From the NCBI GenBank assembly GCA_963808625.1, contig CAWEHK010000008.1, forward strand, positions 192,001 to 256,000: DNA of 64,000 nt, in the 5' to 3' direction. The translations under genes and the position numbers were made by a program. This document shows positions 30,718 to 60,978 of the stretch, piece after piece (position 1 is the first letter of the stretch; the number at the start of each line of letters is the position of its first letter). The notes under the pieces were generated by a model that searched no databases, was not told the origin of the DNA, and worked only from the letters and a program-made list of their open reading frames with translations. The DNA comes from an uncultured delta proteobacterium (GTDB lineage Bacteria > Desulfobacterota > Syntrophobacteria > Syntrophobacterales > Syntrophobacteraceae).

Positions 30718-31273
30718 ATGGCAGACAATCAAAAATCGCGAGGAGCCGTAAAATGTCTTTTCTGGACGGCTCTGGCACTTGTGTTAATCGGTTATGCCTG
30801 GTGGTCGTACACCTCGGGGCAGATGGTTGAATGGTACTATTTCAGGGCCAAGACGGACGGCTTTGCCGTCAACGCCAACACCTTCGCGGGATGCAACCAA
30901 GGAAAAGCCCATCTCCCTTGAAATCGGCAAATTCAATCCCCTTGAGGGACTGCAGGCGACTGCCGTGAAGAAAGGCGACCGGCTGCCCACCAACACCAAC
31001 GGCGTCATCAGCAAGAAGTTAGTGGAAGAGGGCAAGCGCGTCAAGCTCGACGGGGACAAGCTCGTGGTGATGATCCCCATGCAGATCCAGGAGGCGAGAG
31101 GCTTCAAGTTCAAGGACACCTTCAAGCACAAGGGCGTCGAGACCAACCCCTGGTCGGGGGTCTGGAATGTGTGCTGGATCCTTGCTCTCGGGGTGTGCCT
31201 GGGCTACAGCGCCGAGGGGATGACCGACATGTTCGGCCTGAAGCTCACCAAGATACAACACCATGGTCATTAA
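30718..31273 (+). CDS. Two-TM membrane protein with extracytoplasmic loop, first gene of TSUP operon 1 (frameshift ~30889)
   Basis: GGAGG RBS; ORFs 30703-30921 and 30794-31273 join; C-terminus resembles the 99-aa protein at 55081. Confidence 0.7.
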
Positions 31274-31309
31274 GACCGGTTGCCTGAAATCTCACTGGAG
31301 GAGTTGGAC

Positions 31310-32377
31310 ATGTTTGAATTTACAATAGCTGGTGTTACAAGCCCCTGGTTTCTGCTGGTACTTACCGGGTTCACCGTGGGCATAGTGGGCGGCTTCATCG
31401 GGGTCGGCGGCGGCTACATGGTGACGCCGGCCCTCATCGTTTTCGGATTTCCGGGCTACATGGCCTCGGGCATCGACATGACGCATATCGCGGGTAAATC
31501 GGTCATTGCCACCGTCAGGCACCGGCAGATGGGCAACATCGACTGGGTCCTTGGTCTGGCCATGGTGGGCGGCACCATGTTGGGCGTGGAGATCGGCGTC
31601 ACTTTGCTCAGCTGGGCCAAGGCCCTGGGAATAGCCGGAGTTCTGCTCCTGATCTGCTCCCTGGTGGTCATGCTGAGTCTCTTCTTTTACACCCAGATTG
31701 AAACCGCCAAGGCTCAGAAGAAGATCCGGCAGGATTCCGCGGCGGGCATCGAGCACGGCCGAGAGGTCATGGTCAGCAAAGTCCCCATGTTTTTTCAAAA
31801 CATTCCCCTCTATCCCATCGTGCGCTGCCGCACCGCCCGCCTGGTCATCTCCATGTGGGTGATTGTCATCGTCGGCATCGTCACGGGGGTCCTTTCCGGC
31901 TTCCTGGGGGTCGGGGGCGGTTTCGTGCGCGTGCCGGCCCTGGTCTACATTGTGGGTGCGACCACCCACATCGCGGTGGGCACCGACCTGCTCGAGATTG
32001 CCGTCTCCGGCGGCTACGGGGCCATGAGGCACTCCCAGATGGGCAACGTGGACATGATCGCCGTCCTCTTCATGATCATCGGCGCCATGGTCGGGGCCCA
32101 GTTCGGCAGCATCGCCACCTCCTACGTGCGCGGTCCGGCCATTCGGTACATCCTCAGTTACTCGCTGGTTCTGGCCTGCGTGGGAGCAGGTTTTCGGCTG
32201 GTTGACATGCTCACCGGCCAGCAGTACGAGATCCTTCAATTCTTCGCCATCGTCTTCACCCTGGGGGAGATGTTCTTCCTCTGCTTCTTCATTGTGAGCC
32301 TGGTGATCTTCGCCGTGCGTTACCGCAACGGCAAGTCGGTGCCTGACTGGATTCCCTCACTGGTGGTCAAGGAATAG
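31310..32377 (+). CDS. TauE/SafE (TSUP) family transporter 1
   Basis: GFTVGIVGGFIGVGGG...P, RHRQMGNID, GFLGVGGGFVRVPAL...AVGTDL. Confidence 0.92.
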   Translation: MFEFTIAGVTSPWFLLVLTGFTVGIVGGFIGVGGGYMVTPALIVFGFPGYMASGIDMTHIAGKSVIATVRHRQMGNIDWVLGLAMVGGTMLGVEIGVTLLSWAKALGIAGVLLLICSLVVMLSLFFYTQIETAKAQKKIRQDSAAGIEHGREVMVSKVPMFFQNIPLYPIVRCRTARLVISMWVIVIVGIVTGVLSGFLGVGGGFVRVPALVYIVGATTHIAVGTDLLEIAVSGGYGAMRHSQMGNVDMIAVLFMIIGAMVGAQFGSIATSYVRGPAIRYILSYSLVLACVGAGFRLVDMLTGQQYEILQFFAIVFTLGEMFFLCFFIVSLVIFAVRYRNGKSVPDWIPSLVVKE

Positions 32378-32412
32378 TCATTCTCTTCAACCTTACTAGG
32401 AGGTAAAGCGCA

Positions 32413-32520
32413 ATGGGATGGTTCTGGAATAGTATGATCGGTTATTGGATCGGCCTGCTCCTCATTTCCTGCGGGATTGCGGCGGCCATTTACATGATAT
32501 GGCTTCGAGGATTACTATAA
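32413..32520 (+). CDS. 35-aa single-TM peptide
   Basis: GGAGG RBS; MGWFWNSMIGYWIGLLLISCGIAAAIYMIWLRGLL; fills the operon gap; below the ORF-track cutoff. Confidence 0.6.
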   Translation: MGWFWNSMIGYWIGLLLISCGIAAAIYMIWLRGLL

Positions 32521-32535
32521 GGGGGAAAATAAGCC

Positions 32536-32727
32536 ATGCAAATGATGATCAATTTGGTACTATACGGGTTCCTAGCATTTATGATCTACGAGTCCGTCTT
32601 TATCGCAGAGGATTACTTTATGACCTTCTGTGTGGTGTTCGTCATTGTGGTGGCGGTCATCACCAAGCTCATGCCCAGTCTTCATGTGGATAAGTGCTAC
32701 CCCGGTGAGTATCCATTCGACGACTGA
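32536..32727 (+). CDS. 63-aa two-TM membrane protein
   Basis: Hydrophobic ORF; stop overlaps the next ATG (TGATG). Confidence 0.65.
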   Translation: MQMMINLVLYGFLAFMIYESVFIAEDYFMTFCVVFVIVVAVITKLMPSLHVDKCYPGEYPFDD

Positions 32728-33389
32728 TGACCGTTAAACCCATGGCAACGGATCTTGAACCCCTGCGCAGGGGGATCATAACGCTTTACGAGAAGCGGAA
32801 GATCGGCGACCTGACGGAAAAGAAGTTTCAGGCTCAGCTCGCCGAAAAGACGGTGGACCTCTACCGGGCCCTCGTGCGAGACCGGATGGCGGATGGGGAG
32901 GAAATCCAGCTTGAGCACCACACGATCCTCTCCCATCTCAAGCTCACCAAGTCCGTCCTTCGCGAACCGGAACAGTTCGCCACCAGCCTGTTCGCCACCG
33001 ACCGGAGGCTCTTCCGCGTCCGCGCCACGGTGATCATTACCAAGCCCCCGACGGGGGACAAGCGGGATCAGACCGAGGTGGATGCGCTTTCTTACAAGCG
33101 CATGGCGTCGCTCAAGGTCCATCGCGAGATCCGGTGGGGCGAAGCCGGCGTGGGCGCTGGCTTCGCGGCCATCGGGGCCTTCTTCGCCCCCTGGCTCGAC
33201 ATCACCGGACCCTTTGTGATCGGCTTCGGCGTGTTGGGCATCTTGCACGCCTTTATCATTCCCACCCGCTGGATGGAGGTGGTGCCCGAGAACCCGATTC
33301 CCGATATGGATCCGATGAACATCAACGTGCTGAGAAAAAAGAGTGCCAAGGCTCTCGTGCGGTTCCTCCGGGAGAAACTGGAGCGGTGA
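32727..33389 (+). CDS. Hypothetical membrane protein (bPH-like soluble domain plus 2 TM)
   Basis: 220 aa, translationally coupled on both sides; LFATDRRLF resembles bacterial PH domains. Confidence 0.7.
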   Translation: MTVKPMATDLEPLRRGIITLYEKRKIGDLTEKKFQAQLAEKTVDLYRALVRDRMADGEEIQLEHHTILSHLKLTKSVLREPEQFATSLFATDRRLFRVRATVIITKPPTGDKRDQTEVDALSYKRMASLKVHREIRWGEAGVGAGFAAIGAFFAPWLDITGPFVIGFGVLGILHAFIIPTRWMEVVPENPIPDMDPMNINVLRKKSAKALVRFLREKLER

Positions 33390-33788
33390 TGGAAGGGATC
33401 AAGGTTCTTCTCGTAGACGATGAAGTCGAGTTCACCGCCAGCATGCGCAGGGTCCTGGCGCGGCGGGGATTCGAGGTGGACGTTGCCGATGACGGCCTGG
33501 CCGCGCTTCCCATGATGGCGCAGAAGCGTTTTGACGTCGTCGTGCTCGACATCAAAATGCCCGGCATGGATGGAATCAGTGTGCTCGCGCGAAATCAAGC
33601 GCCTTTACCCGGACACCCAGGTGATCATGCTCACCGGGCACTTCTCTTTCGATGGGGAAGAGGACCCTGCGCAACCCGGGGCCTTCGCCCACCTGCTGAA
33701 GCCCATTCCCATCATGAAGCTGGTGGACATCATCCGGGACGCTGCCGTTCATGCCAAAACGGTCCCCGGTGGAGGTGCAAGATCCTGA
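33389..33788 (+). CDS. Single-domain response regulator (frameshift ~33588)
   Basis: VLLVDDEVEF...VVLDIKMPGMDG / VIMLTGH...LLKP. Confidence 0.85.
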
Positions 33789-34260: not shown

Positions 34261-36930
34261 ATGGAATCTGCGAAACCGGTTGAAACTGAAGCCTCGGAAG
34301 CCCGTCCCTGGCATGCAAGAGCCTGGTCGGGTTTTCTCAATTTCCTGGAAATCATCGGCATACTGAAAGGACAGGACGTGGACCAGGCGGCCCAGGTCGC
34401 CAGGCTCAGGCTTTATCACACCGAGTTCCGCAAGCTCCTGTCGGCCAACAACAGCTTCCTGGAGAACCTCGGCGATCTCGATCAGAAGCTTCACGGTAGC
34501 GAACTCGTCGACCGCGCCTTCGTGAAGAGCAAGGTCGTGCGGCTCATCACCGATATCCACGGCATGGTGGAGAGCATCAATGTCATAGCGGGGGATCGCT
34601 ATGGAGCATTACGCGACGCATTCGACCGAATATCAGCCCCGGTTGGCCTGCTGCTGGAAGAAGCCACCGAATCCCCCGGAAGCGAACTGGTCTTGGACCT
34701 CCCCTCGCTGACAACGGCGCAGGCCGAGCTGGCCGGCGGGAAAATGGCCAACTTGAGCGAAGTGGCCAACGGTATGGGCCTGCCCACCCCGGATGGCTTT
34801 GTGGTGACGACCGAGGGTTTCCGGGTGCTGGTGGAGGAGGGCGGTATCCGCTCCTGGCTCCAGAACCGGCACCTCGAAATCGAGTCCGCCCAGGATCTCG
34901 ATGAGATCAGTGCGGAACTGCAGGATCGTATCCTGGGCCTCGAAATTCCCTCTCGACTGCAGGAAGGAATCCTGTCCGCCTATGACCGCCTGGTTGAACG
35001 AACTGGGGAGCCGATGCCTGCCGCTGTCCGATCGAGCGCCGTCGGCGAGGATAGTGACTTTTCCTTTGCCGGCCAATTTCTTTCGGTGCTTAACGTTCCC
35101 AGAGACGAACTCTGCCAGGCCTATCTGCGGGTGGCTGCCAGCCTTTATTCACCGGAAGCCATGCATTACCGGTTCCTGCACGGCATCCCCGGAGAATCCG
35201 CTCAAATGGCGGTGGGATGCATCGGGATGGTGAATGCCGCGGCCAGTGGGGTGGTCTTTTCGCGCGATCCCAACCGGCCCGACTCCGGCAAGGTTTTGAT
35301 CCATGCCATCAAGGGGGTGGGAGTCCTGCTCGTGGATGGGCGTACCTCCCCCGAAGTGCTGGAGGTTTCACGGGATCTCGATGATAAGCAAGTCTTACGG
35401 AGCCCCTCTTCCCAGCTCAGCCGGCTGGTGCTCTCCCCGACATCCGGCCTGAAAGAAGAGGACTTACCGCCGGGAGAAGCCCATAAGCCATGCATTACCG
35501 ACGACCAGGCGGTGCAGCTGGCGACGTGGGCGCTGGAACTGGAAGCCCATTTCGGGAGCACTCAGGATCTGGAATGGGCGCTTGATGAGGAAGGAAGGCT
35601 CATTCTGCTGCAGTCGAGGCCCCTCAGCCTTTCCGCGCAGTCGAGCCGCACCGAAAAACCGATCCCCGGCTGCACGCTTCTGGTGGAGGGCGGCGAAGTC
35701 GGCTGCCCCGGCATCGGGATCGGCCCCGCTGTCCACATGTCCCAGGATGACGACCTGGAATCCTTTCCGGATGGTGCCGTGCTCGTGGCGAGAAGGTCCT
35801 CCCCGCGGTTTGTGCGCCTGATGTCCAAGGCGAGGGCGATCGTGACCGACGCCGGCAGCACCACCGGGCACATGGCGTCTCTCGCCCGGGAACTCAGAGT
35901 CCCTACCCTGCTCAACACCAGGACGGCCGTCTCGTCCATTCCCAACGGCACCCTGGTCACCGTTGACGCCAGCAGCGGGTTCGTTTACGAAGGAGAAGTC
36001 CCGGCTCTGGCCGAGAAGCAGGCTACAGCTCTGGAAGAAGGAGAATTCTCCGGCAGAAGAAAGCTGACGCCCGGCTATCAACTGCTCGCAAAAGCGGTCG
36101 AGCTCATCGCGCCGCTCCACCTCACCAACCCTGCCGGGGGCGGTTTTTCCGCCAAAGGGTGCCTCACCCTGCACGATATCGCCCGCTACGTCCACGAAAA
36201 ATCCTACCAGGAAATGTTCATGCTCAGCGACAATGTGGGAGATCTCCGCGCCGCCAGCTATCACCTCGATGTGTTTCTGCCTATTGATCTCTACATCATC
36301 GACCTCGGCGGCGGTCTCGAAGGGGACCTCTCGCATCGCAAGGTCAAACGCGCCCAGGTGATTTCCGTGCCGCTCAAGGCGGTGCTGGACGGCATGATGC
36401 ACAAGAAGATCCAAAGGTTTGGAGCAAAACCCATGGACTTCAGCGGTTTCTTCAACATCATGATGCGGCACGCCACATCCAGCCCCGAGGAGGACGCCTC
36501 CTTCCGGGCCCCCTGCTACGCCATCATCTCCGACAAATATCTGAATTACGCCGCCCGGGTCGGCTACCACTTCAGCGTGGTGGACAGCTACTGCGGGCTG
36601 ACCCAGAACAAGAATTACATCAGTCTGGTCTTTCACGGCGGGGCCGCCGACTATACGCGCAGGGCGCGGAGAGTACGGGCCATTGGCGAGATCCTCAAGG
36701 AGCATGGCTTCACGGTAAAGGTCGACCAGGACCGGGTCCATGCCCGCCTGGCCAAGACCACCCAGGAAGATACCGTGAAGCATTTGGAGATGATCGGTTC
36801 CCTCTTCCAGTTCTTCCGGCAGATGGATGCGGCTATGACCAGCGACGCGGCCGTTGCCATTTACCGGGATGCGTTTCTGCGAGGCGATTACGGTCTGGAA
36901 GAAATCACTGGGAAGGGAACATCCCAGTAA
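34261..36930 (+). CDS. PEP-synthase-like dikinase 1 (ATP-grasp plus swivelling His domain plus uncharacterised C-terminal domain)
   Basis: GGKMANL, PDGFVV, AVRSSA.GED...SFAGQF, QDLEWA...LQSRP, GSTTGHMASLARE; no PEP-binding barrel motifs. Confidence 0.88.
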   Translation: MESAKPVETEASEARPWHARAWSGFLNFLEIIGILKGQDVDQAAQVARLRLYHTEFRKLLSANNSFLENLGDLDQKLHGSELVDRAFVKSKVVRLITDIHGMVESINVIAGDRYGALRDAFDRISAPVGLLLEEATESPGSELVLDLPSLTTAQAELAGGKMANLSEVANGMGLPTPDGFVVTTEGFRVLVEEGGIRSWLQNRHLEIESAQDLDEISAELQDRILGLEIPSRLQEGILSAYDRLVERTGEPMPAAVRSSAVGEDSDFSFAGQFLSVLNVPRDELCQAYLRVAASLYSPEAMHYRFLHGIPGESAQMAVGCIGMVNAAASGVVFSRDPNRPDSGKVLIHAIKGVGVLLVDGRTSPEVLEVSRDLDDKQVLRSPSSQLSRLVLSPTSGLKEEDLPPGEAHKPCITDDQAVQLATWALELEAHFGSTQDLEWALDEEGRLILLQSRPLSLSAQSSRTEKPIPGCTLLVEGGEVGCPGIGIGPAVHMSQDDDLESFPDGAVLVARRSSPRFVRLMSKARAIVTDAGSTTGHMASLARELRVPTLLNTRTAVSSIPNGTLVTVDASSGFVYEGEVPALAEKQATALEEGEFSGRRKLTPGYQLLAKAVELIAPLHLTNPAGGGFSAKGCLTLHDIARYVHEKSYQEMFMLSDNVGDLRAASYHLDVFLPIDLYIIDLGGGLEGDLSHRKVKRAQVISVPLKAVLDGMMHKKIQRFGAKPMDFSGFFNIMMRHATSSPEEDASFRAPCYAIISDKYLNYAARVGYHFSVVDSYCGLTQNKNYISLVFHGGAADYTRRARRVRAIGEILKEHGFTVKVDQDRVHARLAKTTQEDTVKHLEMIGSLFQFFRQMDAAMTSDAAVAIYRDAFLRGDYGLEEITGKGTSQ

Positions 36931-37085: not shown

Positions 37086-37568
37086 TCAGACCACCGTGAC
37101 AGGGCAGCCGGCATTTGCGATTAAATCCTCCACCGGCGCTCCGAAGAATTTCTTCACCCATTCAGGTCTTTTTGACCGTGTGGTCACAATAAGAGATGGC
37201 TTCACCCGCTCCACGATCTCAAGGCACACGACCGCAAAGCGGCCGATCTGGATGTGCGTCTGCACTTCAATTCCTTCTTTTTGAGCCCTCGCAATGATCG
37301 CCTCCACATGCTCCCGGCCGGCTTTCTCATGCTGCTCCAGCAGACCTGACTCGCAAGACTCCCTCAACTCACCAAAGAGCCCCAGGTCGACGTCCACAAA
37401 GTAGCGCGCTAAATTGACGTCCGCGACATAAACGACCGCTAGTCTCTTAACCTCTCGAGATTTTTCAATGGCGGTGTCGATGGCCTTCTCAGATTGCCTG
37501 AACGTCGAGAGGGCCAACATCACACAGCCTTCCATGTTCCTGGTTGCACTGTCAGGTGCTTGCGCCAT
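37086..37568 (-). CDS. Universal stress protein
   Basis: USP fold pattern (MLALSTF...VVYVAD...IV..T.S...FFG...E.LI..A.CPV.VV). Confidence 0.8.
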   Translation of the reverse strand: MAQAPDSATRNMEGCVMLALSTFRQSEKAIDTAIEKSREVKRLAVVYVADVNLARYFVDVDLGLFGELRESCESGLLEQHEKAGREHVEAIIARAQKEGIEVQTHIQIGRFAVVCLEIVERVKPSLIVTTRSKRPEWVKKFFGAPVEDLIANAGCPVTVV

Positions 37569-38066: not shown

Positions 38067-38575
38067 CCTGACCGATCCGACCTCGGGGGCCTTTCGGCCG
38101 ACGCCGCCAGCGTCAAGGACATGGCCCCATACATCCTCGAGAAATCGTATCACGAGATGTTCATGCTGGGTGAAAACGCAGGCGATCTTGGGCTCCCCGC
38201 TCCCCCTGGACAGCTGTCTGCCAATCGGCATGTATCCATTGATCTAGGGGGCTGATCCCGGGGACTGCGAGCAAGCCAAGGCAGAACGCGCTCAAATCGG
38301 CTCGACCCCCTGCAGGTGCGGAGGGTACGCACTATTGCGGGTAACTCGACGAGTAAGAAGATTCAGCGTAAAGGTCAATCAGGACGGAGCGGCTAAACGC
38401 CAGCCTGAATAAGCCAAGCAGGGAGGAAGCGGTAACACATCTCGAGATGATCGGCTCACTCCTGCAGTTTTTCAGGCAAATGGACGCGGCCATGACCAGC
38501 GACGAAGCCTTGACCATCATAAAGGACGATTTGAGAGGTGATTATGGCCTGGAGGAAATTGCCGGGAAGAAGTAA
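38067..38575 (+). pseudogene. Decayed, internally deleted copy of the dikinase 3' region
   Basis: EKSYHEMFMLGENAGDL and HLEMIGSLLQFFRQMDAAMTSD...RGDYGLEEIAGK* match 36120-36930; stops and frameshifts lie between them. Confidence 0.8.
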
Positions 38576-38579
38576 ACGA

Positions 38580-38981
38580 CTAGGTCTTTTCAGCAACGTC
38601 CAGGACACAGCATTTCCGCTCGTAGGCGTCTTCGATACACGAGACCAGATTGTCGATGGGGCAGGGCTTCAGCAAGACCTCGGCGCAGCCGTCCTTAAGG
38701 GCCTGAGACACCTGTTTGATATCGATATGACCCGATAAAAAGATCACCGGAGTCACAGCATCCCGCTCCCTCATCGCCTTGAAGGTTGCAATCCCATCCA
38801 TCCCGGGCATTCGCACATCGAGAACGATAACATCGACCTCCTCTTTGGACAGCAGTTCCAGCGCGGCTGCCCCATTCGGAGCGCTCTGCACCACCATTCC
38901 CCTTCTCCGGAGGACTCTGGTCAGCGAGTCAACAAAGATCTGTTCATCATCAATCAGTAGCACACGTATGGGATCAGACAT
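38580..38981 (-). CDS. Single-domain response regulator
   Basis: LLIDDEQ...VLDVRMPGMDG...FLSGH...LLKP. Confidence 0.92.
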   Translation of the reverse strand: MSDPIRVLLIDDEQIFVDSLTRVLRRRGMVVQSAPNGAAALELLSKEEVDVIVLDVRMPGMDGIATFKAMRERDAVTPVIFLSGHIDIKQVSQALKDGCAEVLLKPCPIDNLVSCIEDAYERKCCVLDVAEKT

Positions 38982-38992: not shown

Positions 38993-39400
38993 TTAAGGAC
39001 CTTTCCCTTCCTGCATTAGCTTTCGCTCAAAGGCCTCGTCGATTTTTTCCTGCAGCTCGCTGATCTGGATCGGCTTCATGGCGTAATCAAAAGCGCCGAT
39101 GTTCATCCCCTGAATTCCCGTTTCCACCGAGCCATGGCCGGTAAGGATGATGACTTCCATCAGCGGCCGTTTCCTCTTCATCACTTTCAGAGCGGCAATA
39201 CCGTCCATTCCCGGCATGCGCAGGTCGAGCATGGCGACGTCGTATTCCTCGTCTTCGATGGCCCTGACCGCGCTCTCGCCATCGTTTACGGCGCTGACAT
39301 CATATCCCCTTCTGGAAAGGAGCTTGGACATGTTGGCGGTAAAGGCAACCTCATCATCAACCAGCAAAATCCTTGCTTTCCTCATCTCAATTTCCTCCAT
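38993..39400 (-). CDS. Single-domain response regulator
   Basis: LLVDDE...[11 protein letters not shown]...ILTGHG...AFDY.MKP. Confidence 0.92.
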
Positions 39401-41170
39401 GAATGCCGTCCGCGCTTCCGTGGCGATCCCCAGACGACCTGAAGGGGAGGAAAATCGTGAACTCGGTTCCCTTCCCGACCTCGCTCTGTACCGTAATGAC
39501 CCCGCCCAGTTCTTTGATAATGTTGTACGAGATCGACAAGCCCCAACCCGGTTCCTTTGCCCACCGGTTTGGTGGTGAAGAAAGGATCGAATATTTTCTC
39601 GAGAACTTCACGGGGCATACCGGAACCGGTATCGGCAAACCTGATCTCACACCCTGCCCGGCTTTGTCATTGGCGCGCGTGGCTCACGCGGATGGTTCCA
39701 TAGGGCTTTCCGTCATGAGCATCGATGGCATTTGCAGCCAGGTTCACAAAGACCTGCTGAAGCTGGGAAGCATCGGTCAGGACTTTGGGCAGATCCTTAT
39801 CCAGATCGGTGACAAATTCGACCCCACTCGATTTGCCTCTCTTTTCCAGCAGATCAACGACTTCCTGCAGACAGCCATTGAGATCGACCATTTCCGTCAC
39901 CGCCTGCGAACGCCGGGCAAAGCGCAAAAGATTGTGGGTAATGTGATTGCAGCGCTGAACCTGATTTTCAATTTGGGTTAAGGATTCAGACAATTCTGCT
40001 TTGAACTCGCCGTTGAGATCCGGATAATCCCCGCTGACATCCCGCACAATCTGGCTTTCCGTAAGAATAATGGCCAGCGGATTGTTGATTTCGTGCGCCA
40101 CACCCGCGGCCAGCTCGCCCAGCGAGGCCAGTTTGCTGGCCTGCATGAGTTGCCGGTTAAGATGTTCCGCTTCTTCATCCCGCTTCCGGATCACCCCGAT
40201 CATGTGCTTGGTCGTAATGAAAGAAACGACCAGAATGGCCAGCACGCTCAGGTGAATGAAGACCAACGCCAGGGTGTTGGCATGGTTGACGTCGCCAAAG
40301 GCTTCCGCATAATCCTGCTTGACGATGAGCACCCAGCGAGGTTCTTTGAGCCACGCGTAGCCCACTACCTGGGAGGGTTGCTTCTGATAGGTGCTGATCT
40401 CTCTCGGTTCCAGGACCCGAACCCCCCCTTCACCCGGCAAAGGATGCCACCGGCAGGGGCGATCGCTCCATGATCTTGCCGCCGAAGCGAGGGCTGGTTT
40501 GATAGACGCCCTCGCCGTTCACAATGAACACTTCACCGGTTTCACCGAGTTTGATGTTGCCAAGGAGTGAGTCCAGGAACTCGTTTTCCATGGTCGCTCG
40601 TAAAATCCATTTTCGGCCTCCTTCCGACCACAGGAAGCCGATGATAAAGTGAGGCGTCTTGCGATATCCGGTAAACATGTCACTGACGTAGAACCCTCCT
40701 TTCGCCATCAGTTCCTTAAACCAGAAGGTCACAGAGTAGTCCTTATCCATCAGATCATACGGCCCCACATAGGCCACATGCTTGCCCTGGTCATTGATGA
40801 GCCCGAGATCCATGAAGTAGGAATCTTCCCGATTCAGGTTATCGAGAACGCGCTGAAGGTTTGAACGGTCCCCAAGATAGTCCACGGAATGGGTCGAGGC
40901 CGTCAATTGGAGGTCGGAAGTGCGCTCTTTCAGAAACAGTTCGATCAGTTTTCGATTGTACTCTACCCGCCGGTAGAAGAAATCTTCCATTCGCGAAAAG
41001 GCAAAGTTGGAGTAGTTCGAGTAAATGACCCACCCCACCAGAAGCATGGGAAGCACGGAACAGATCAACGTGAGCAGGATGAAGCGGCGATAGAGACTGG
41101 AATAGGATTTCTTGTGCAACTCCCCGGTATGCTGGTGGGAATCGGCGGCAATGTTCAGTTCACGGCTCAT
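39387..41170 (-). CDS. Membrane Cache-domain histidine kinase (frameshifts ~40435, ~39672, ~39535)
   Basis: TM, YVGPYDL...[44 protein letters not shown] spread over four ORFs. Confidence 0.85.
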
Positions 41171-44500: not shown

Positions 44501-44743
44501 AAGGGGTCGGGAGGGGGAATGGATGCTGCGGGTGCTCTGATATTGCTTTCTTCCCCGAGTCAGGACTCCCCGTGACCCGAAGAATCAGAGAAAATGTTGA
44601 GAACCAACGATCGTCATTCCCGCAGGCTCCAGTCGGGAATCCAGAGAGATGGTCTGGATACACGCTTTCACCAGTTTGAAAGAGTGAGATTATATGGACC
44701 GCTAACCACCGTTTTCATAAGTGCCAAGCAAAGGAGACCCATT

Positions 44744-45370: not shown

Positions 45371-45566
45371 GCTTCAACATCGTCCCGCGGCTCTATGAGG
45401 ATCGCCTTATCGGGCTGCCGTTCACCCACTTGTGAACACGCTTTCTGGGGAAGTTCTCTTGATGAGTGCCGGGCCCAGATGACAACATAGAGGGCATGTT
45501 CATGGTGATCCACACCTTACTCGTTTACTCGTGAGAATAGTGTGGCGACGGGGCGAACATTGCCTG

Positions 45567-45596
45567 TTGACATCACCCTTTTTTAACTGCTATTTT
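45567..45596 (+). promoter_or_regulatory. Putative sigma-70 promoter
   Basis: TTGACA-18 bp-TATTTT with a TGn extension, upstream of 45714. Confidence 0.5.
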
Positions 45597-45713
45597 CAAT
45601 CGAAATAGAAATCCTCGATCAAGAAGCTAAGTCCTGATTGATAGCGCCTACCTGAAGATAATGAAAAAGAGTCTCGAATAGGGAAAAACGTTCTTTCATA
45701 GAAAGGGGTTCCC

Positions 45714-52126: not shown

Positions 52127-52913
52127 TCAGGACAATGCGACCAGAAAGCCCGGTTCCTGGCAGGCAGTCCGAGGTTGCGACGGCGATTGCATCCTCGTCG
52201 TAGACCTCCTTAACCACGACGCTGCCGACGGGGACCCCTGTCTTATCGAGAAGCGTCAGCACACTGCCGGTGCGCACCCCTTGCCTGGTTCCAAGGGCGA
52301 AGGATACTTCATATTCGTCGTCCTTTCTGCTGATGCGATAGATTTCTGCTTTGCCCTCCTGCCTGAGGAGTTGCTCCCTTCGCTGTGAACACAGGTAGAC
52401 TATGCCGGAGAATACTATTGCCAGGGGAAAGAAGAGGGCTGCGGACCACCAGGGCGAAATGCCCGTATAGCGCTGAATGATGGATGCAGAGCTTCTCTGC
52501 AGACTGGCTGTACTACCAAAGATCCGAACGCGGAATACCGTGAGTGGTTTCCCGGATGGTTCGCTTCTGCTGCTCACGGTAACCGTGTAGTCCCCAGCCG
52601 TGATCTCGGTGCTCGTCGTCAACTCTCCTCGCCACATGAGGCCCCCGAGCCAGAACCCGGTATGGATTTTCTCGAAGGAGAGGCGGATCTGGTCGGAGTC
52701 ACTGGCATATTTCAAATCCTGAGGGTCGCGGACGCCTTCGCTTGCCGGTCCATTTACCGGTATGGATTCTCCGGGGAGGAGCCGCAGTTCGTTGACGTCC
52801 TGCCCGAAACGAGAGCTCAGACCGTCAAGGGCGGAAACACAAAACAGCAGACAGCAAAGGGCTGCCACTCTTCCCGCTGACTGCCGCCAACGGTTGATGT
52901 GATCAAGGGTCAT
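52127..52913 (-). CDS. Hypothetical membrane protein, last gene of TSUP operon 2 (probable frameshift ~52158)
   Basis: N-terminal TM, GFWLGGLMWRG, second TM; the alternative frame ends EPGFLVALS* at 52127. Confidence 0.65.
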
Positions 52914-52943
52914 GAAGAAAACACCATAGGCTTCGCGAAGGGG

Positions 52944-53160
52944 CTAAACATTTGTCTTCGGCTCCGGTTCTTTCGAACGCAACCCCTTGATAACAAATCG
53001 TGCCAGAATCAGCGTCGGAATAAGCAAGGAAAAAAACATCAGGAAAAAGATTGAGGCAAAGTCTCCAGGATTCTGGTTGGCAAAATAGATGCTGATAGCC
53101 AAGCTCAACCAGGACCGCAACATCCAAAACCGCTACCCCAACTTTTTGCCGAAAGTTCAT
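52944..53160 (-). CDS. Small two-TM membrane protein (frameshift ~53100)
   Basis: MNFRQKVGVAVLDVAVLVEL/AISIYFANQNPGDFASIFFLMFFSLLIPTLILARFVIKGL. Confidence 0.65.
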
Positions 53161-53296: not shown

Positions 53297-53911
53297 CTAT
53301 TTCTTGTAGATATCCGTCGTGGTGACGTTCATGCACCGTTGGGCCACACCTTCCTTATGATAATAAACCCGGATCTCGTCTCCGGCATCCCAGGTGCTGT
53401 CGGGAAGGGCAAAATATTCGTCCGGAAGCGAGAAGGTGACCAGGACCTTCTGTCGGCCGGAGTAAATGGTGATGGTCTTCTTTTCCTTGTCCACCGCCGG
53501 GAATTTCTTGGCCTTCTTCTCAGCCGCGTCATAGACCAGCGGATCAATCTTCTCCACGTTTTCTTTCTGGTCGATCAGGGTGTAGTCGAGGGTTTTGAAA
53601 TTCTGTGCAGCCGGATCATAAATCACAATCTGCTTGGCCTTGGTATCCAGCTTCATACGGCCGCCGGGTTTCGGTTCCTGGCCCATTTCCATGGGATCTT
53701 TGGGCAGGGCGTAGGTCATGGGCGGCAGATGAGTGTAGTCCGGGTTTTTCGAATCATTGGCAGTGTCCCGGATGATCGTGGCCGTCCACTTCTCCTTATC
53801 GAATTTGACCACCCGACCCTGGTCCACCTTTCCATATTCGCCACAACTCACCACCAGGGCCAGTGGCAGAATGATCAAAAGCGTCATCAACCAGTTGCGT
53901 TTCATTGCCAT
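53297..53911 (-). CDS. Lipoprotein, DUF4881-like
   Basis: Lipobox LVVSC; GKVDQGRVV, EMG.EPK.GGRMKLD, W.AGDE.R.YY, MNVT.TDI; family name is from recall. Confidence 0.75.
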   Translation of the reverse strand: MAMKRNWLMTLLIILPLALVVSCGEYGKVDQGRVVKFDKEKWTATIIRDTANDSKNPDYTHLPPMTYALPKDPMEMGQEPKPGGRMKLDTKAKQIVIYDPAAQNFKTLDYTLIDQKENVEKIDPLVYDAAEKKAKKFPAVDKEKKTITIYSGRQKVLVTFSLPDEYFALPDSTWDAGDEIRVYYHKEGVAQRCMNVTTTDIYKK

Positions 53912-53966: not shown

Positions 53967-55028
53967 TTAGCTTCCCATAGCTGCTTTCTTGCGCCGTACT
54001 TCCTCTGCCGCTCCCTGAAACATCTTGACGGAGATATAGACCGACAGGGCAGCGACAACCCCCAGCACGACCACGGTGGCGAGGGTATCGCAAATGGCCT
54101 GGACGGAAGGAACGTACATGGGAATGATTTTCAAAATGACCGAAATGGTACAGCCCACCACGGCACAGCCAAACGCAACGCGAATGCCGTAGCCCTTGAT
54201 GTATTTGGTGGCGACCGCGCCAATCTGAGCTCCCATGGACGCCCCCACCAGCATGATGATGGCCGCAACGAGTTCGACCCGGCCCTTGTAGGTATAGGTA
54301 GCCGCGCCGTAGAGGCCCGAGATCATGACTTCAAAGAGGTCGGTGCCCACCGCGACGTGGGTCGGACAGCCAAGGATATAGATCAAAGCGGGCATCCGGA
54401 TGAGACCACCGCCGATGCCAAGGATACCAGCGAGCCAACCCGTGAGGAAGCTCACCATGATGGGCAGCCAGGCCGAACAATAGATGCCGGCCACGTGGAG
54501 ATGCACCATGGGAGGGATCTTGATTTTGTGAAAGGTCTTGTGCCATTCGAGACCCGTAGCCAGGGCATCCAGTTCCTCGCCCGCGGCCGCGGCTTCTCTT
54601 TCCTTCTTTCTTCGCTTGGCTATATCGCTGAAGACCATCCAGGTGATGAGAAGGAGCAGCAGGACGTAAAGCCAGCGGACAATCATATCCACCTGGCCGA
54701 TGCGTTCCAGCCACATGATCATCTGGGCGCCGACTTCAAAACCGATGACCGTGCCGACCAGCATGATCAGGCCGAGCTTGTAGTCCACGTTCCCGAACTT
54801 GCCGTGGCGCATGGTGGAGATGAGGGATTTCCCGGCCATGTGCGCAATGTCCGTGCCAATGGCAAAAGCCATGGGAAAACCGAGGATGTTCAGGCCGGGA
54901 GTCACCATCCAGGCACCGCCCATACCAAAGAAACCGCCAATGATGCCCACGCCGATTCCCAGAATGATCAAACCTGGCCAGAATATATGGACACCCGCAA
55001 TGGGCATGAGAACATAAAGCCAATCCAT
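53967..55028 (-). CDS. TauE/SafE (TSUP) family transporter 2
   Basis: GVGIIGGFFGMGGAWMVTP, AIGTDIAH, RH.KFGNVD, GIGGGLIRMPAL...AVGTDL. Confidence 0.92.
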   Translation of the reverse strand: MDWLYVLMPIAGVHIFWPGLIILGIGVGIIGGFFGMGGAWMVTPGLNILGFPMAFAIGTDIAHMAGKSLISTMRHGKFGNVDYKLGLIMLVGTVIGFEVGAQMIMWLERIGQVDMIVRWLYVLLLLLITWMVFSDIAKRRKKEREAAAAGEELDALATGLEWHKTFHKIKIPPMVHLHVAGIYCSAWLPIMVSFLTGWLAGILGIGGGLIRMPALIYILGCPTHVAVGTDLFEVMISGLYGAATYTYKGRVELVAAIIMLVGASMGAQIGAVATKYIKGYGIRVAFGCAVVGCTISVILKIIPMYVPSVQAICDTLATVVVLGVVAALSVYISVKMFQGAAEEVRRKKAAMGS

Positions 55029-55080
55029 AAAAATACCTCCTGTTTTGGGTTGGGGTGGCGATTGCCGTCAACAATCGCCA

Positions 55081-55380
55081 TTAGTGTTCCGCGAGGTCCC
55101 GCGACTTCAGATCAATGCCGATGTGGGACATGACGATATCGGCCAGCGTCCCGAAGATTACCCCAATCAAAGGGATCAGAATGATGGTCACGATCGTGAA
55201 ATAGACATGGCTTTCATTGTACAGATCGCCCCACCAGGCCATCAGGCCGCTGAGCTTGCGCGTGTCGGCGACAATGACCACCGGTGCCGCGCCGCCCCCA
55301 CCGGCTGCCAGCACCATCCCGGGCAACAGGAGAGAGACCAGGGTCCCCAGTCCAAGAAGTTTTGTCCATAATCTCCGCAT
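55081..55380 (-). CDS. DVU0150-like small membrane protein
   Basis: Signal peptide, VIVADTRKL.G..AWW.DLYNES, GIDL.SRDLAEH; family name is from recall. Confidence 0.75.
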   Translation of the reverse strand: MRRLWTKLLGLGTLVSLLLPGMVLAAGGGGAAPVVIVADTRKLSGLMAWWGDLYNESHVYFTIVTIILIPLIGVIFGTLADIVMSHIGIDLKSRDLAEH

Positions 55381-55511
55381 GTTTGATAACCTCCCTTTGC
55401 TAAAATTCTAAATCGGAACGCAGCCTCAAGCCTCGTAGCAAATTATTTCTTCGGAAAGCAAGCCGCCCGGAACCATCTTCCTCCAGGATTCTTCCCGACG
55501 TCCCGCTCCCT

Positions 55512-55925
55512 TCACCTGATCACGGCAACCGAACAAGGGGCACTGGCGACGACCTTTGCCGCCGTACTGCCGATCAACAACCTCTTCAAGCCGCTGTGCC
55601 CGGTGCTTCCCATCAGGACAAGATCGAACTTTCCCTCTTCCGCCTTGCTGATAATATTGTTGGCGGGTACATAGCCCGCTTCGAGGATGGTCTCGACCTT
55701 GATGCCCTTCTCGTCAAAGAGCGCTTTCGCTTTCTTCAAGGCATCGGCAGCTTGAGCTTCCAGTTTTTCCTGGATGTTCAAGGGAATCTCATCGAGGTCT
55801 TCCCTTGAAAAGAAGGCGACGGAAATCAGGGTGATCTCATCACCCTCCCTTTCCGCCAACTCTATCGCCCTCCTCACGGCCTTCAGGGAATGCTCCGACC
55901 CGTCCGTTGCGACAAGAATCTTCAT
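55512..55925 (-). CDS. Universal stress protein
   Basis: KILVATDGSEHS...DLVLMGSTG.SGL..LLIGS.A.KVV..APCSV. Confidence 0.93.
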   Translation of the reverse strand: MKILVATDGSEHSLKAVRRAIELAEREGDEITLISVAFFSREDLDEIPLNIQEKLEAQAADALKKAKALFDEKGIKVETILEAGYVPANNIISKAEEGKFDLVLMGSTGHSGLKRLLIGSTAAKVVASAPCSVAVIR

Positions 55926-56183
55926 AAAAACCTCCCTTCCTCTTTTAAGTGGCTACAAACGTGGCGCCTCTCTTCAGGTTTGAGAGAAGATCTCCACCCT
56001 CACAATCTCCAAGTTCCTTTCATTTCAGGGTAAGGCCGGTCGCTCCCGGAAGTTTCTTCAAAGAGACCCGGACCACTTCCTGCAGTTGGTCGAAAACGGT
56101 CGTTTCACGTGAGGAGAGGAGCAGTATCGGAGGATGAATTCGTCGTTTAACAGTCACTCGATGGTCAACCGGTTATGGCTTTG

Positions 56184-56199
56184 AGCAATATTTATACCA
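56184..56199 (-). promoter_or_regulatory. Putative sigma-54 promoter for the USP-TSUP operon 2
   Basis: TGGTATAAATATTGCT (GG-N10-GC); palindrome GTGTCA-N9-TGACAC at 56297-56317 is a candidate UAS. Confidence 0.6.
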
Positions 56200-56319
56200 T
56201 ACCATTGATACGATGCTCTGCCACGAAATTGCGAGCCTCGGCGGCCTGATCAATCCCTTCCTCAAGAGGCAACAGTGAAACTTCCAGGCGACAGGTGTGT
56301 CATGCGCCGGGTGACACTC

Positions 56320-56715
56320 TCACAGGATGGAAGCCTGGGCCATGGGGAAAAATTCTTCGATTTTCTTTCTGATTGACTCCACTTTGATGGGTTTGAAGAT
56401 ATGGCCCTGGGCCCCCAGGGTGAAGGCCTCACCGAGATGTTCCTTTTGGTGAAGGAAGGCGTTCACTACGACAACCACCTCCGGGAACCGCCTTTTGATC
56501 TTTTTGAGAAGCTTGAAATCACTCTCCCTGGCAATGCTCAAGTCGATCAGCGTGAGGACGAAGGGGATATCCTGAAGGAGGTCGAAAGCCTCCTCTTCTC
56601 CCGCCGCCAGGTAACACTTGCAGTCCCGGCGAACCTCAATGGCGCGCGCGAACAATTCACTCACATCGCGATCCGCCTCCAGGATGAGAATGTTCTTGCG
56701 GTTTGGTTCGGTCAT
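56320..56715 (-). CDS. Atypical single-domain response regulator
   Basis: ILILEAD...LIDLS...VVNAF...IFKP; conserved Thr/Ser replaced by Asn. Confidence 0.75.
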   Translation of the reverse strand: MTEPNRKNILILEADRDVSELFARAIEVRRDCKCYLAAGEEEAFDLLQDIPFVLTLIDLSIARESDFKLLKKIKRRFPEVVVVVNAFLHQKEHLGEAFTLGAQGHIFKPIKVESIRKKIEEFFPMAQASIL

Positions 56716-56902
56716 GCTGAGAACGCTTTCCGCTCCCGGGAGAAGAGCCAGGCTCAAGTGGGCCGAAGACTCGTTGCATGGTTGTCAGCGCATCAACGGC
56801 AAATATCGGCGAATTCCTTATCGGGGAAGAACAATATCAATTACTGTGCCAGACTAAGCCGGCATCTGAAATAGGGGCGCAGGGCAGACACTGAGGCAAA
56901 CC

Positions 56903-57050
56903 GATATCGAACATCGAACCGCACAGGGTGAAGGATCGAACCGCAGAATATCGAACCGCAGAAAGTCGAAGGGTGCGCCTGTTCACAGTTTGAAGTTCGT
57001 CTTCCCACCCCTTCGATATTCGTGATTCGATTTTCGTTATTCGGTATTCG
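56903..57050. repeat. Inverted pair of CGAA-based short-repeat tracts overlapping the kinase stop
   Basis: ATATCGAACATCGAA...TCGAAGGG faces CCCTTCGATATTCGTGATTCGATTTTCGTTATTCGGTATTCG. Confidence 0.65.
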
Positions 57051-59265
57051 CTTTTTGTAGAGGTATCCGAAGGGTGAATGTAGTACCGGAAGCCCCCGGT
57101 CGGTCGGCCTCGGTGTGACTTTCACACTCTATCGTCCCGCCATACTGAGTGACAATGCCATAGCTCACGGAAAGGCCCAGGCCCGTGCCTTCTCCCACCT
57201 TCTTCGTGGTGAAGAAGGGATCGAAGATCCGGGGCAGGAATTCCTTCTCGATGCCGCAACCGGTGTCCGAAACCAGCACCTCGGCCCAACCGGCTTCTCC
57301 TTCGCAGCGGGTCGATACGTTAAGCACCCCCTTGCCGTTCATCGCATGAAGCGCGTTGCTGATGAGGTTCAACAGCACCTGCTGCAGGCCTTTGGAATCA
57401 ATGCCGGCAATTCCCACTCCCTCTTCGAGGTTGGCAATCAGTTTGATATTGTTCATGCTAAGGGTGTGCTTGACGACGGCAAGGATGGCCTCAACACTGG
57501 CGTTCACGTTGCAGTACGCTTCGGTCTCTTCGCTGATCCTGGCAAAGTTGAGCAGCCTCTCGATGATGCTCTTGCAGTGCAATCCATGCCGTTCGATGGT
57601 CTTCAGATCGTTATACTCCATGGTGCCCGGCGCCATTCTCTCCAGCAGCAGCTCACAAAACCCCATCATGATCCCGAGAGGGTTGTTGATCTCATGCGCC
57701 ACGCCCGAAGCCAGGGTCCCCAGGGACGCCAGTTTCTCCGTGTTGATCAGTTGTTTTTCGAGGCTTTTTCGCTCCGTTACGTCGCGCCCTATGGCAAGAA
57801 CGTAATCCTCACCACTGCCTTCATCCCTTACCGGAAGGAATTGGAGATGAAACCAGAATTCCTGGTTATGAATCTTGAAGATGGTTTCAGTCCGCTGGCT
57901 GATCCCGGACCGCAGCACCTCGTTGACAATGCGCAACTGATCTTCCGTTTGATCCAGCGAAAGCAGGCAGTAGAGGCTTTGACCGGCCAGTTCGTCCATG
58001 TTGACGCCAAAGAGCTTGGACATGTATTGGTTCATGGATTTGATGATGCCGTCGCCATCGAGAGTGAAGATGAGCTCCTCGGCATTTTCCGCCAGTGCGC
58101 TGAACCTTGCCTCCGAGGTTTTCAGATCTTTTGCCTGCCGGTGAAGATCATCGACTTTCGCGCTCACCTCCTGTTCAAGGGCATTTGCCCAACGCCATTC
58201 ATAAAGCACCCCGACGAACCCCCCCAGGAGGATAAGGAGGAGCACCAGGCCTTCGAGGAAAACCTGCCGCCCGTAGACGGTCGTGATAATCCCCTCAACC
58301 TCGTCGGCAGGGGCAACGACGGCCACCGACCAGACATAGTCCATAAAGGGTCCCTGGATACGGACTGGAGCAAAAGCAATCAGTTTTTCCATCGGTTCGA
58401 TCAGCTCGCGATGCCAGCCCGACAGGTACTTGCCGGTGCCTTCCCGGCCTTTCATCATCTCATTGCGCTGGATGTCATTGATTTGGGCAAAAGACATTTG
58501 CGCATTGCGAATGGTGCGTATTTCAAAGGCGTTTTCCGCGATAAAACCGCTTTCCGGATGGTAAAGAAAGGTGCCGGAGGAGTCCATGACCCAGGCATAA
58601 CCGCTCCTGCCCGACCGGATCAGGGGCACAATCTGGGCGAGAAGCCGGCTGACATCGATGGTGGCTTTCAGATACCCGGCAAAGCCGTGAGACGGTTGCG
58701 GATGCAAACTGCTGATTGCTTCTTCGTAGGTCGGAATGATGAGATCCATAACGAGATGTTTGCGGTCGATGGTGGGATCTTTTGAGCGAATGCCGGTCCC
58801 CATGGTCTTTCCCCGATTGCTGAGATCGGAAGCCCAGGACAGATACACACCGGCCTCACTCTGGACCAGGTCCAGATGTTTCATGCCAATTCCCTGCTCG
58901 TTGGCGACGAAGAGCGTATGGCCATTGCGGTCGACCCGCCGGATTTCAATGATATTGTCTCGATTCAGCAGGGGAAGGGTCGAGAGAAGGAGTACTTCAT
59001 AGGAATTGGGATCACCATATTGGACCGCCGGCAGCGAGTTCAGCAGGATCAGATCCGTAATTGCCGCCTGCAGGTTGGCTTCGATCCGCTGCGCCGTTGC
59101 CCTTGCCAGGACCAGTTGTTCGGCATTGAACTGGTCTTCGATAATTACCCGCATTTGCCGGACCGTCGAAAACCCCAGATAGCAGGTCCCGGCAATCAGC
59201 AGGACCGCTAGAACGCATATTATCTTGAATCTCTTGAGAAGTTTTTGCCGTTCTCTGGCGATCAT
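57037..59265 (-). CDS. Membrane Cache-PAS histidine kinase
   Basis: Two TMs, [41 protein letters not shown]. Confidence 0.92.
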   Translation of the reverse strand: MIARERQKLLKRFKIICVLAVLLIAGTCYLGFSTVRQMRVIIEDQFNAEQLVLARATAQRIEANLQAAITDLILLNSLPAVQYGDPNSYEVLLLSTLPLLNRDNIIEIRRVDRNGHTLFVANEQGIGMKHLDLVQSEAGVYLSWASDLSNRGKTMGTGIRSKDPTIDRKHLVMDLIIPTYEEAISSLHPQPSHGFAGYLKATIDVSRLLAQIVPLIRSGRSGYAWVMDSSGTFLYHPESGFIAENAFEIRTIRNAQMSFAQINDIQRNEMMKGREGTGKYLSGWHRELIEPMEKLIAFAPVRIQGPFMDYVWSVAVVAPADEVEGIITTVYGRQVFLEGLVLLLILLGGFVGVLYEWRWANALEQEVSAKVDDLHRQAKDLKTSEARFSALAENAEELIFTLDGDGIIKSMNQYMSKLFGVNMDELAGQSLYCLLSLDQTEDQLRIVNEVLRSGISQRTETIFKIHNQEFWFHLQFLPVRDEGSGEDYVLAIGRDVTERKSLEKQLINTEKLASLGTLASGVAHEINNPLGIMMGFCELLLERMAPGTMEYNDLKTIERHGLHCKSIIERLLNFARISEETEAYCNVNASVEAILAVVKHTLSMNNIKLIANLEEGVGIAGIDSKGLQQVLLNLISNALHAMNGKGVLNVSTRCEGEAGWAEVLVSDTGCGIEKEFLPRIFDPFFTTKKVGEGTGLGLSVSYGIVTQYGGTIECESHTEADRPGASGTTFTLRIPLQKANTE

Positions 59266-59430
59266 TTTTTGTTTTCCTCTGCTTCGAAGAGTTGCGCGTT
59301 CGCGAGTTGCGGGTCAAGAAAGCAACGTGGCCTTTTCATGTGTTTTCGGGTGTCCCGAAGGGGCATAAAGAGCTGCTACCGAAAGCGCCTGGCGTGGGGT
59401 GAAACTTTCAGGTGACATTCTCATTGACTT

Positions 59431-59530
59431 GCCCCTCACATCGTGGTCAGAATAGCCGACATGAATTGGTTGATGGTTGATAGTTGATGGTTGAAGCCCC
59501 TCACGTCGTGGTCAGAATAGCCGACATGAA
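59431..59530 (+). repeat. 35-bp direct repeat flanking a 30-bp (TGGTTGA)4 tract
   Basis: GCCCCTCACRTCGTGGTCAGAATAGCCGACATGAA at 59431-59465 and 59496-59530, one mismatch. Confidence 0.9.
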
Positions 59531-59556
59531 CCGTGATTCCAACAAGGGAGGCAGAG

Positions 59557-60978
59557 ATGTCGGGAAGAATCCTCATCATTGATGATGAAAAGGACATGCT
59601 GGTCCTTTTGGAACGGATCTTGTCGGGGGCTCTTGCCGTCGAGATCACACGCACCGATGATCCCATGGAAGTGCCGGGATTGTTAAAGAAAAACAACTTC
59701 GAGGTGGTCATCACCGACCTCAAGATGCCGCAGCGAAACGGCATCCAGATTCTCGAAATGGTCAAGGAGAAAGACGAGACCACGGCCGTGATCATCATGA
59801 CCGCCTTCGGCACTATCGAATCGGCCATCGAAGCCACGCGCAAAGGGGCATACGACTATATCACCAAGCCTTTTCGGAAGGAAAGAATCCTGCACGTGGT
59901 GGAAAAAGCCATCAACTGGCAGCGGCTCCAGAAGGAAAACGTCTATCTCCGGGAAAAGCTGGGAGGAAAGCCGCAGTTTCCGGCCCTCCTTGGAGGCAGC
60001 GCCGCCATGGAGCGTTTGCACGCCCAGATCGACCGCATCGCCGGGACTTCGGCGACCGTGCTCATCACCGGTGAAAGCGGGACCGGTAAGGAATTGGTGG
60101 CGCGCGCCGTGCACATCCACAGCCAGAGAAAGACGAAACCGTTTATCCCCATTGACTGCAGCACCATTCCCGAATCACTTATTGAAAGCGAGCTTTTCGG
60201 TCATGTGAAGGGAGCGTTTACCGGTGCCATTCGGGACAAGAAGGGACTGGTCGAGGAAGCCAACAGCGGGACGCTTTTCCTGGATGAGATCGGTGACCTG
60301 AGCGTGACCATGCAGGTCAAACTCCTGCGCGTGCTCCAGGAAGGGGAATACAAGGTGGTGGGTGCGAACACCATGCGGAAGGTGGATATCCGCTTTATCG
60401 CCGCCACCAATCGGAATTTGCAGGAGCAAATCAAAAACGGAGAATTTCGTGAAGACCTCTTCTACCGCCTGAACGTCATCAACATTCATCTTCCCCCTCT
60501 GCGGCGAGAGGATGGAAGACATCCCCGTGCTGACCAGCCCATTTCATCGAAAAATACAGCGTCATTCACGGCAAGAAGGTGAAAGGAATCTGCCGGGAAG
60601 CCCTTGATCATTTGCTGTCGCGGGACTGGCCGGGCAATATCCGGGAATTGGAAAATGTCATCGAACGGGGCGTGATCATGGCCACCGGCGATATCTTGCT
60701 TGAGGAAGATCTCCTGGCCACGGACGCGCCGGGTTCTGCCGGAGCCGCCCCCGCTCATCTCGCCGATGATATCTTCGCCATGCCCTTCAAGGAGGCCAAA
60801 GACCGACTGATCGAGGAATTCCAGATGCCAATACATCGCCCGAGCCCTGGCGCGCCACGGTGGCAATGTCTCGCAGGCCGCCCGCGACTCCGGCGTCAAG
60901 CGCCAATATCTCCACCGCCTCATGCGCGACACCCACCTCGAGTCAAAGGCCTTCAGGAAGCCTGAGTCATCAGAGTAG
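59557..60978 (+). CDS. Sigma-54-dependent response regulator, NtrC family (frameshifts ~60510-60540 and ~60828)
   Basis: [62 protein letters not shown]. Confidence 0.92.

Follow-up and report, generated by a model that had tools for sequence, protein, structure and literature searches.

Two gene clusters of Desulfovibrio are the closest described relatives of the genes treated here. For the first, the available excerpts of three papers report that DVU0145-0150 is up-regulated in D. vulgaris in co-culture, no function being given there (PMC4265775), that DVU0150-0146 is assigned to the sigma-54 activator DVU0151 and DVU0132-0133 is termed a TSUP operon (PMC4641369), and that the genes of the DVU0150 operon are non-essential, with gene sizes that include 1053 nt for DVU0149 (PMC10102598). 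For the second, an excerpt reports that insertions in DVU0251 (TauE), DVU0250, DVU0247 (receiver) and DVU0246 (dikinase) made D. vulgaris resistant to nitrate and that an insertion in DVU0245 (phosphatase) did not; its authors propose a leaky thiosulfate transporter, from their unpublished data, and the annotation given there for DVU0246 comprises ATP-grasp and mobile domains only (PMC4001038). Here we compare with these clusters a locus of an uncultured delta proteobacterium (Syntrophobacteraceae, assembly GCA_963808625.1, 84.6% complete) in which two operons of TSUP (TauE/SafE) transporters lie close to genes of dikinases without a pyruvate-binding barrel. The locus is part of a stretch of 64,000 nt of contig C8, called the window in the following.

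The window was surveyed by listing of open reading frames (ORFs), translation and protein-family scans, and 40 ORFs were scanned in 26196-63962. A preliminary description had pointed to a syntrophy-induced Desulfovibrio locus with similar parts, and the induction of DVU0146-0150 is indeed in print (PMC4265775, PMC4641369). The importance for syntrophy that it had proposed found no support as a syntrophy-specific role: its published basis is one expression result in one species, and the sister cluster points to the entry of thiosulfate or nitrate (PMC4001038). Our literature search, which did not extend to subscription papers or bioRxiv supplements, yielded no biochemical work on the dikinase or its partner families, nor the subtype of module 1 described below.

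Two transporter-dikinase modules in the window

The window carries two copies of a conserved transporter-phosphotransferase-signalling system, and a third copy lies elsewhere in the same genome. Module 1 is encoded on the + strand. It begins with leader 1 (30718-31273, +), a type-B TSUP partner of ~185 aa with N- and C-terminal membrane helices and a frameshift near 30890, followed by TSUP1 (31310-32377, +), a TauE/SafE permease of type B with 355 aa (PF01925, E 9e-40). Three small genes come next: a 35-aa membrane protein with a single helix (32413-32520, +), found in 14 of 16 related loci (contig ends cut the remaining two); a 62-aa membrane protein with two helices (32539-32727, +); and an accessory protein of 220 aa (32727-33389, +), which is hydrophobic in its C-terminal segment and belongs to no Pfam family. 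A stand-alone receiver (33389-33788, +; frameshift near 33589) precedes the intact dikinase DK1 (34261-36930, +; 889 aa).

Module 2 lies on the - strand. Its first gene encodes universal stress protein 2 (USP2; 55512-55925, -), with a predicted sigma-54 -24/-12 site upstream (56183-56201, -). It is followed by leader 2, a DVU0150-family protein of 99 aa (55081-55380, -; NF040783, 147 bits against a cut-off of 70), by TSUP2 (53967-55028, -), a DVU0149-like permease of type A with 353 aa, by a DUF4881 lipoprotein (53297-53911, -; PF16222, E 9e-80), by a two-helix protein of ~72 aa (52910-53160, -; one frameshift), whose order and size suggest the position of DVU0147 and which was seen in 4 of 6 related loci checked, and by the final gene of the operon, for an accessory membrane protein of ~245 aa (52185-52913, -; end uncertain). 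Upstream of the module are a divergent stand-alone receiver (56320-56757, -) and a dCache_1-PAS sensor histidine kinase (57037-59265, -), with the gene of an NtrC-type receiver-AAA activator (59533-60978, +; frameshift near its 3' end) in divergent orientation.

The two TSUP operons with three accessory genes each, noted in the preliminary description, were thus recovered: the permeases score 137 and 147 bits with PF01925 (gathering cut-off 32.6; model positions 1-235 of 237) and are 36-38% identical to each other. The third module, on contig C39 (L001:7507-13428 of G000), comprises a 417-aa TSUP, a 237-aa two-helix partner, a USP, a receiver, an intact 872-aa dikinase and a tandem USP.

Co-occurrence of TSUP and dikinase genes

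Sixty other genomes of the phylum were searched with a profile of the C-terminal domain (C-domain) of the dikinase and with a profile of the three TSUPs of this genome. The TSUP scores fall into two groups separated by a gap from E 3.5e-30 to 4e-18, where the cut was placed post hoc; repeat matches to one gene were merged. The C-domain was found in 18 of the 60 genomes, with up to nine dikinase matches per genome, and high-scoring TSUPs also in 18; both were present in 17, each alone in one. Within 10 kb of a C-domain lay 29 of 44 high-scoring TSUPs as against 3 of 75 other TSUPs (3 of 37 if only dikinase-bearing genomes are counted). The Fisher value for this proximity, 8e-13, is overstated because related genomes are not independent. 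Co-occurrence with these operons, which the preliminary description had named as a check, lies far above that of other TSUPs, and the link between TSUP and dikinase is real.

In 23 loci chosen by the published DVU0149 primer only, several of them short, DVU0150 was present in 23, DUF4881 in 21 and a dikinase in 10. Type-B loci were available from 16 of the 20 other genomes with a leader-1 match, and 14 of these extend far enough; in all 14 the three small accessory genes are followed on the same strand by a DK1 orthologue (one ends at a contig edge), with a receiver in between in 13. Fifteen protein clusters recur in at least 4 of 41 loci; each represents a transport protein, a signalling protein or a transporter partner, and no recurring catabolic or downstream enzyme was found among them.

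The dikinase clades largely follow transporter subtype, as judged from a FastTree tree of 80 dikinases from which DK2, being in pieces, was omitted. In the DK1 clade (support 1.0) 15 of 15 members flank type-B operons; in a second clade (0.99), where the closest matches of DK2 fall, 13 of 16 have a DVU0150 operon within 6 kb; and in a third (1.0) 6 of 6 flank partners of the Alph_Pro_TM family (PF09608). Type-B loci are mostly close kin. The pattern does not reflect species phylogeny alone, because transporter subtypes coexist within single genomes.

The dikinase and its two histidines

DK1 consists of a helical N-domain (residues 42-135), an ATP-grasp domain (PPDK_N, 156-464), a mobile His/swivel domain (502-573) with His537, and the C-domain (~604-880) with His638. 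The catalytic residues K161, R257, E263, D264, E438, Q451, R453 and H537 are present and conserved in 47 family members, in keeping with the ATP-driven His phosphotransfer proposed earlier. With the PEP synthase model TIGR01418 the enzyme scores 281 bits (cut-off 739.75) and matches about positions 1-463 of 784, leaving the pyruvate-binding barrel unmatched. It also stays below the cut-offs of rifampin phosphotransferase (Rph; 180 bits against 999) and PigC (165 against 1300), and its His domain is central. A structure model of DK1 (pLDDT 81) found its best fold matches in PEP synthase (2ols best) and rifampin phosphotransferase. The C-domain, of 280 aa, gave no Pfam match of note in 47 C-domains and no clear PDB match; Asp639, Arg642, His645, His770, Arg804 and Asp856 are invariant in the 47 members.

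His638 is present in 45 of 45 enzymes bearing His537, in 75 of 75 in a larger, overlapping set and in 73 of 74 further fragments, and is replaced in 4 of 4 variants lacking the swivel domain. For the larger set, a 371-aa protein that the alignment had misassigned was counted as His-less after inspection, and one contig-end fragment was set aside. Because it is kept with the swivel His and lost without it, His638 is, by its conservation, tied to phosphotransfer, as a second acceptor or as a base. In the DK1 model His537 and His638 each begin a helix, as does the phospho-histidine of HPr. The His-less variants lie within about 2 kb of TSUP genes (L036:13329-14645, L060:3079-4212, L133:126-1241, L039:9302-11707), and three of them also lack the ATP-grasp domain; their persistence near these genes would fit a binding or regulatory role.

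Three related dikinases (L053:6477-9593, L054:2355-5729, L056:228-3425) have an additional C-terminal domain of ~200 aa, which in two of the three gives weak, below-cut-off matches to lectin-like beta-sandwich families.

Interrupted genes

Leader 1, one receiver, one kinase, DK2, the 72-aa gene and the NtrC gene are in pieces. Comparison with related loci showed that intact orthologues span each of them end to end. DK2 (41824-44427, +), in four pieces through three frameshifts, is full length: its pieces retain the catalytic motifs and intact orthologues of ~865 aa are covered end to end. The extra bases at 30890-30891, 33589-33590 and 42897 are missing from contigs of four public runs (best 12 of 48 indel rows), which represent related strains other than that of the window. 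Because these contigs lack the extra base, the frameshifts are probably assembly errors and, since orthologues also span it, DK2 is probably intact. The third copy (38085-38575, +) is a true deleted remnant: it comprises the C-terminal region alone, with 68% identity to DK1 over 62 aa. Of the two full and one decayed PEP-synthase-like genes of the preliminary description, the two full genes stand, DK2 with its frameshifts, and the decayed one is reduced to a C-terminal remnant.

Membrane partners and control genes

Gene order suggests that each TSUP and its small membrane partners may form a multi-subunit transporter complex. The kinship of the two leaders, assumed earlier, received little support: the 159-aa piece of leader 1 gave no hidden Markov model match to NF040783, and profile comparison (hhalign) with the DVU0150 family was not significant (E 0.086; E 0.11 at full length; E 0.012 for the last ~60 aa). 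The leaders have in common the look of a C-terminal glycine-bearing helix, nothing more, and leader 1 is a separate family, present in 21 of 401 sampled genomes (one match weak). The DVU0150 family (55081-55380 compared with L048:8991-9770) does resemble the C-terminal ~40 aa of PF09608 proteins, which partner a fourth TSUP subtype (hhalign probability 72%, E 3e-5). The likeness suggests a common TSUP-anchoring element. Leader 1 and the 237-aa type-C partner had no significant match to PF09608 proteins.

In loci selected for their dikinases, 26 of 49 dikinase genes have a stand-alone receiver no more than 300 nt away. A predicted sigma-54-type site lies ahead of USP2 both in the window and in 4 of 6 relatives, against a background of 0.04 per 450 nt; such a site precedes leader 1 in 13 of 16 relatives and was not found there in the window. 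In four loci (L055:6218-7231, L065:5644-6726, L066:6742-7740, L071:6282-7361) a dual-specificity phosphatase with a cysteine-rich C-terminal extension is encoded directly 3' of one group of dikinases, a position as in the nitrate cluster.

Between DK1 and DK2 lie USP1 (37086-37568, -; PF00582), the dikinase remnant, which alone is on the + strand, two stand-alone receivers (38580-38981 and 38993-39400, both -; PF00072) and a dCache_1 sensor histidine kinase in three reading-frame pieces (39400-41170, -). Family scans thus found all of the two USPs, four stand-alone receivers, two Cache kinases and one NtrC-type activator listed before.

Neighbouring genes

DK2 and module 2 are kept apart by a Sel1 gene (44594-45370) and the gene of a 2081-aa secreted surface protein (45714-51959) with VWA, an internal repeat array, five FN3 domains and an FGE-sulfatase-like domain. 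Neither product of 44594-51959 had a match of at least 40% among the proteins of 9 related loci. The region 26196-28967, immediately before module 1, encodes a PiT phosphate transporter, DUF47, CBS genes and a Cache-like kinase fragment. A HEPN-domain gene and a WD40 repeat protein gene occupy 61157-63962. In 4954-21346 three MTHFR-domain genes, two with MetV-like DUF5981 parts, are interleaved with large FAD/4Fe-4S oxidoreductases whose make-up is HdrA-like.

A possible role of the dikinase

Each TSUP operon probably encodes a multi-subunit importer of a small anion, which would be switched on by its cognate dikinase through a relay from ATP to His537 to His638, a reading to which we give a probability of about 0.4. 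The anion would be a sulfur oxyanion such as thiosulfate, or a small carboxylate. The dikinase would transfer a phosphate from ATP to His537, and a His-to-His step would carry it to His638 of the C-domain. A protein of the transporter complex would then receive it, and uptake would be turned on. The adjacent receiver, downstream of the Cache kinase, would activate the dikinase, and sigma-54 with NtrC would drive transcription of the type-A operon. What was observed directly is that the genes are present in a conserved order, that transporters and dikinases form cognate pairs, that the ATP-grasp and swivel-His residues are intact, and that His638 is lost along with the swivel His. The absence of a recurring catabolic enzyme from the loci also counts for gating, as do the receivers near dikinases and the phosphatase after one dikinase group. 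In the sister cluster insertions in the TSUP, receiver and dikinase genes all gave nitrate resistance and that in the phosphatase gene did not, according to the excerpt of PMC4001038. Of the two roles proposed in the preliminary description, regulation of the transporter fits better and substrate trapping less well.

Several observations weigh against importer gating. No TSUP was present within 10 kb on the same contig for 22 of 57 dikinases, and some dikinases adjoin SLC13/CitMHS carriers with CBS-domain genes in place of TSUPs (L062, L064, L067, L058). Three further neighbours of PF09608 partners (type D) sit outside the third, type-D clade, and in a fourth, type-C clade (support 1.0), which includes the C39 enzyme, just 10 of 20 flank the 237-aa partner. 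The His-less variants come from no more than two or three independent lineages, and in one fragment that has a His domain the His638 position is taken by Gln. The protein acceptor is a prediction; His638 might just as well act as catalytic base on a small molecule, and dual-specificity phosphatases also act on small molecules. As for the mutants, the phosphatase mutant of strain G20 was resistant (fitness 2.08), unlike that of D. vulgaris, the insertion phenotypes may be polar, and DVU0246 is likened to the dikinases of the window by annotation, as given in the excerpt (PMC4001038).

The strongest competitor, which we consider rather improbable, is phosphorylation of the imported small molecule by the dikinase so as to trap or activate it; His638 would be the catalytic base, and the conserved arginines would bind the anion. 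PEP synthase and rifampin phosphotransferase, the nearest solved relatives, act on small molecules; the invariant Asp639, Arg642, His645, His770, Arg804 and Asp856 of the C-domain would suit such a site, and the matching of enzyme to substrate would equally yield cognate pairing. However, the loci contain no recurring downstream enzyme, catalytically stripped variants are retained beside TSUP genes, and one enzyme family serves several transporter types as well as SLC13 carriers.

Less probable still, and in our view unlikely, is an unconventional two-component kinase in which His638 would phosphorylate the aspartate of a neighbouring receiver or of NtrC, the output being transcription of the transporter operon. 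The His-Asp-x-x-Arg helix, which resembles the H-box of histidine kinases, would agree with this, and so would the receivers within 300 nt of 26 of the 49 dikinase genes and directly before DK1 in 13 of 14 loci, and the common phenotype of receiver and dikinase mutants in the excerpt of PMC4001038. Conventional Cache kinases are already present in the loci, though, 23 of the 49 dikinases have no adjacent receiver, and the clades track transporter subtype. That dikinase and transporter merely share a regulon, the enzyme having a metabolic role of its own, e.g. as a non-canonical PEP synthase, is very improbable: databases do label these proteins pyruvate,water dikinase and no PEP synthase above the TIGR01418 cut-off was found in this 84.6%-complete genome, but the barrel is unmatched, the up to nine matches per genome are paired with transporter subtypes, and a dikinase insertion mimics a TSUP insertion (excerpt of PMC4001038). 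Importer gating thus ranks first, followed in turn by phosphorylation of the substrate, of a receiver, and co-regulation.

The dikinases might even form a new class of ATP-fuelled two-histidine phosphorelay, combining the logic of phosphotransferase system (PTS) enzyme I and HPr in one ATP-grasp-driven chain. Each paralogue, controlled by a receiver, would phosphorylate and gate its own multi-subunit TSUP anion importer, and in some loci a dual-specificity phosphatase would serve as the off-switch. We put this wider proposal forward tentatively. A relay of this kind would be a new way to control secondary transporters and would bear on the escape of sulfate reducers from nitrate treatment; His638 and the cognate pairings offer a direct handle for biochemistry. 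The transporter-dikinase arrangement is widespread in Desulfobacterota-type anaerobes. The family, often multi-copy in the 18 of 60 sampled genomes that have it, carries the annotation pyruvate,water dikinase, and this can lead metabolic reconstructions of sulfate reducers and syntrophs astray.

Comparison with known systems

DK1 has in common with PEP synthase (TIGR01418) and pyruvate phosphate dikinase an ATP-grasp domain followed by a swivel-His domain, and differs from them by a 280-aa alpha/beta domain in place of the pyruvate barrel and by the additional helical N-domain. Rifampin phosphotransferase, PigC and RedH combine ATP-grasp and swivel-His chemistry, as DK1 does, with a third domain that is not a barrel; their acceptor domain sits between the two catalytic domains, whereas that of DK1 is C-terminal. 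Pairs of a TSUP and an Alph_Pro_TM protein resemble module 2 in having a membrane-anchored partner adjoining the TSUP, DVU0150 being without the large periplasmic part.

The nitrate cluster (DVU0251-DVU0245; Dde_0597-0605) was compared by annotation, as given in the excerpt of PMC4001038. Like the modules of the window it brings together a TSUP, a kinase, a lone receiver and a barrel-less dikinase, and mutants of the cluster have a common phenotype. It differs in having a phosphonate-binding protein and a dual-specificity phosphatase, neither of which is among the 40 ORFs of 26196-63962 and both of which occur in other loci, and in the annotation it is without DVU0150, DUF4881 and the type-B partners.

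The DVU0150-0146 operon was compared by gene order and by gene sizes from the papers rather than by D. vulgaris DNA itself; DVU0152, grouped with it here, is not named in the excerpts. The control genes differ: module 2 has a Cache-PAS kinase and a receiver-NtrC protein, as do L083 and L084, and the one-component DVU0151 activator, present in 21 of the 23 primer loci, is not beside it. The structural genes agree, the same order being kept for a DVU0150-family gene, a TSUP of similar size (353 aa), a lipoprotein gene, a small gene and a gene for a membrane protein, with a predicted sigma-54 site ahead. The published DVU0149 primer encodes a motif found in TSUP2, and the primer loci are 70-83% identical to TSUP2. 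Judged by these likenesses, module 2 is a version of the published DVU0150-0146 operon. The syntrophy-induced DVU0146-0150 operon and the nitrate-resistance cluster, both Desulfovibrio findings of long standing, seem to represent a single system in different versions.

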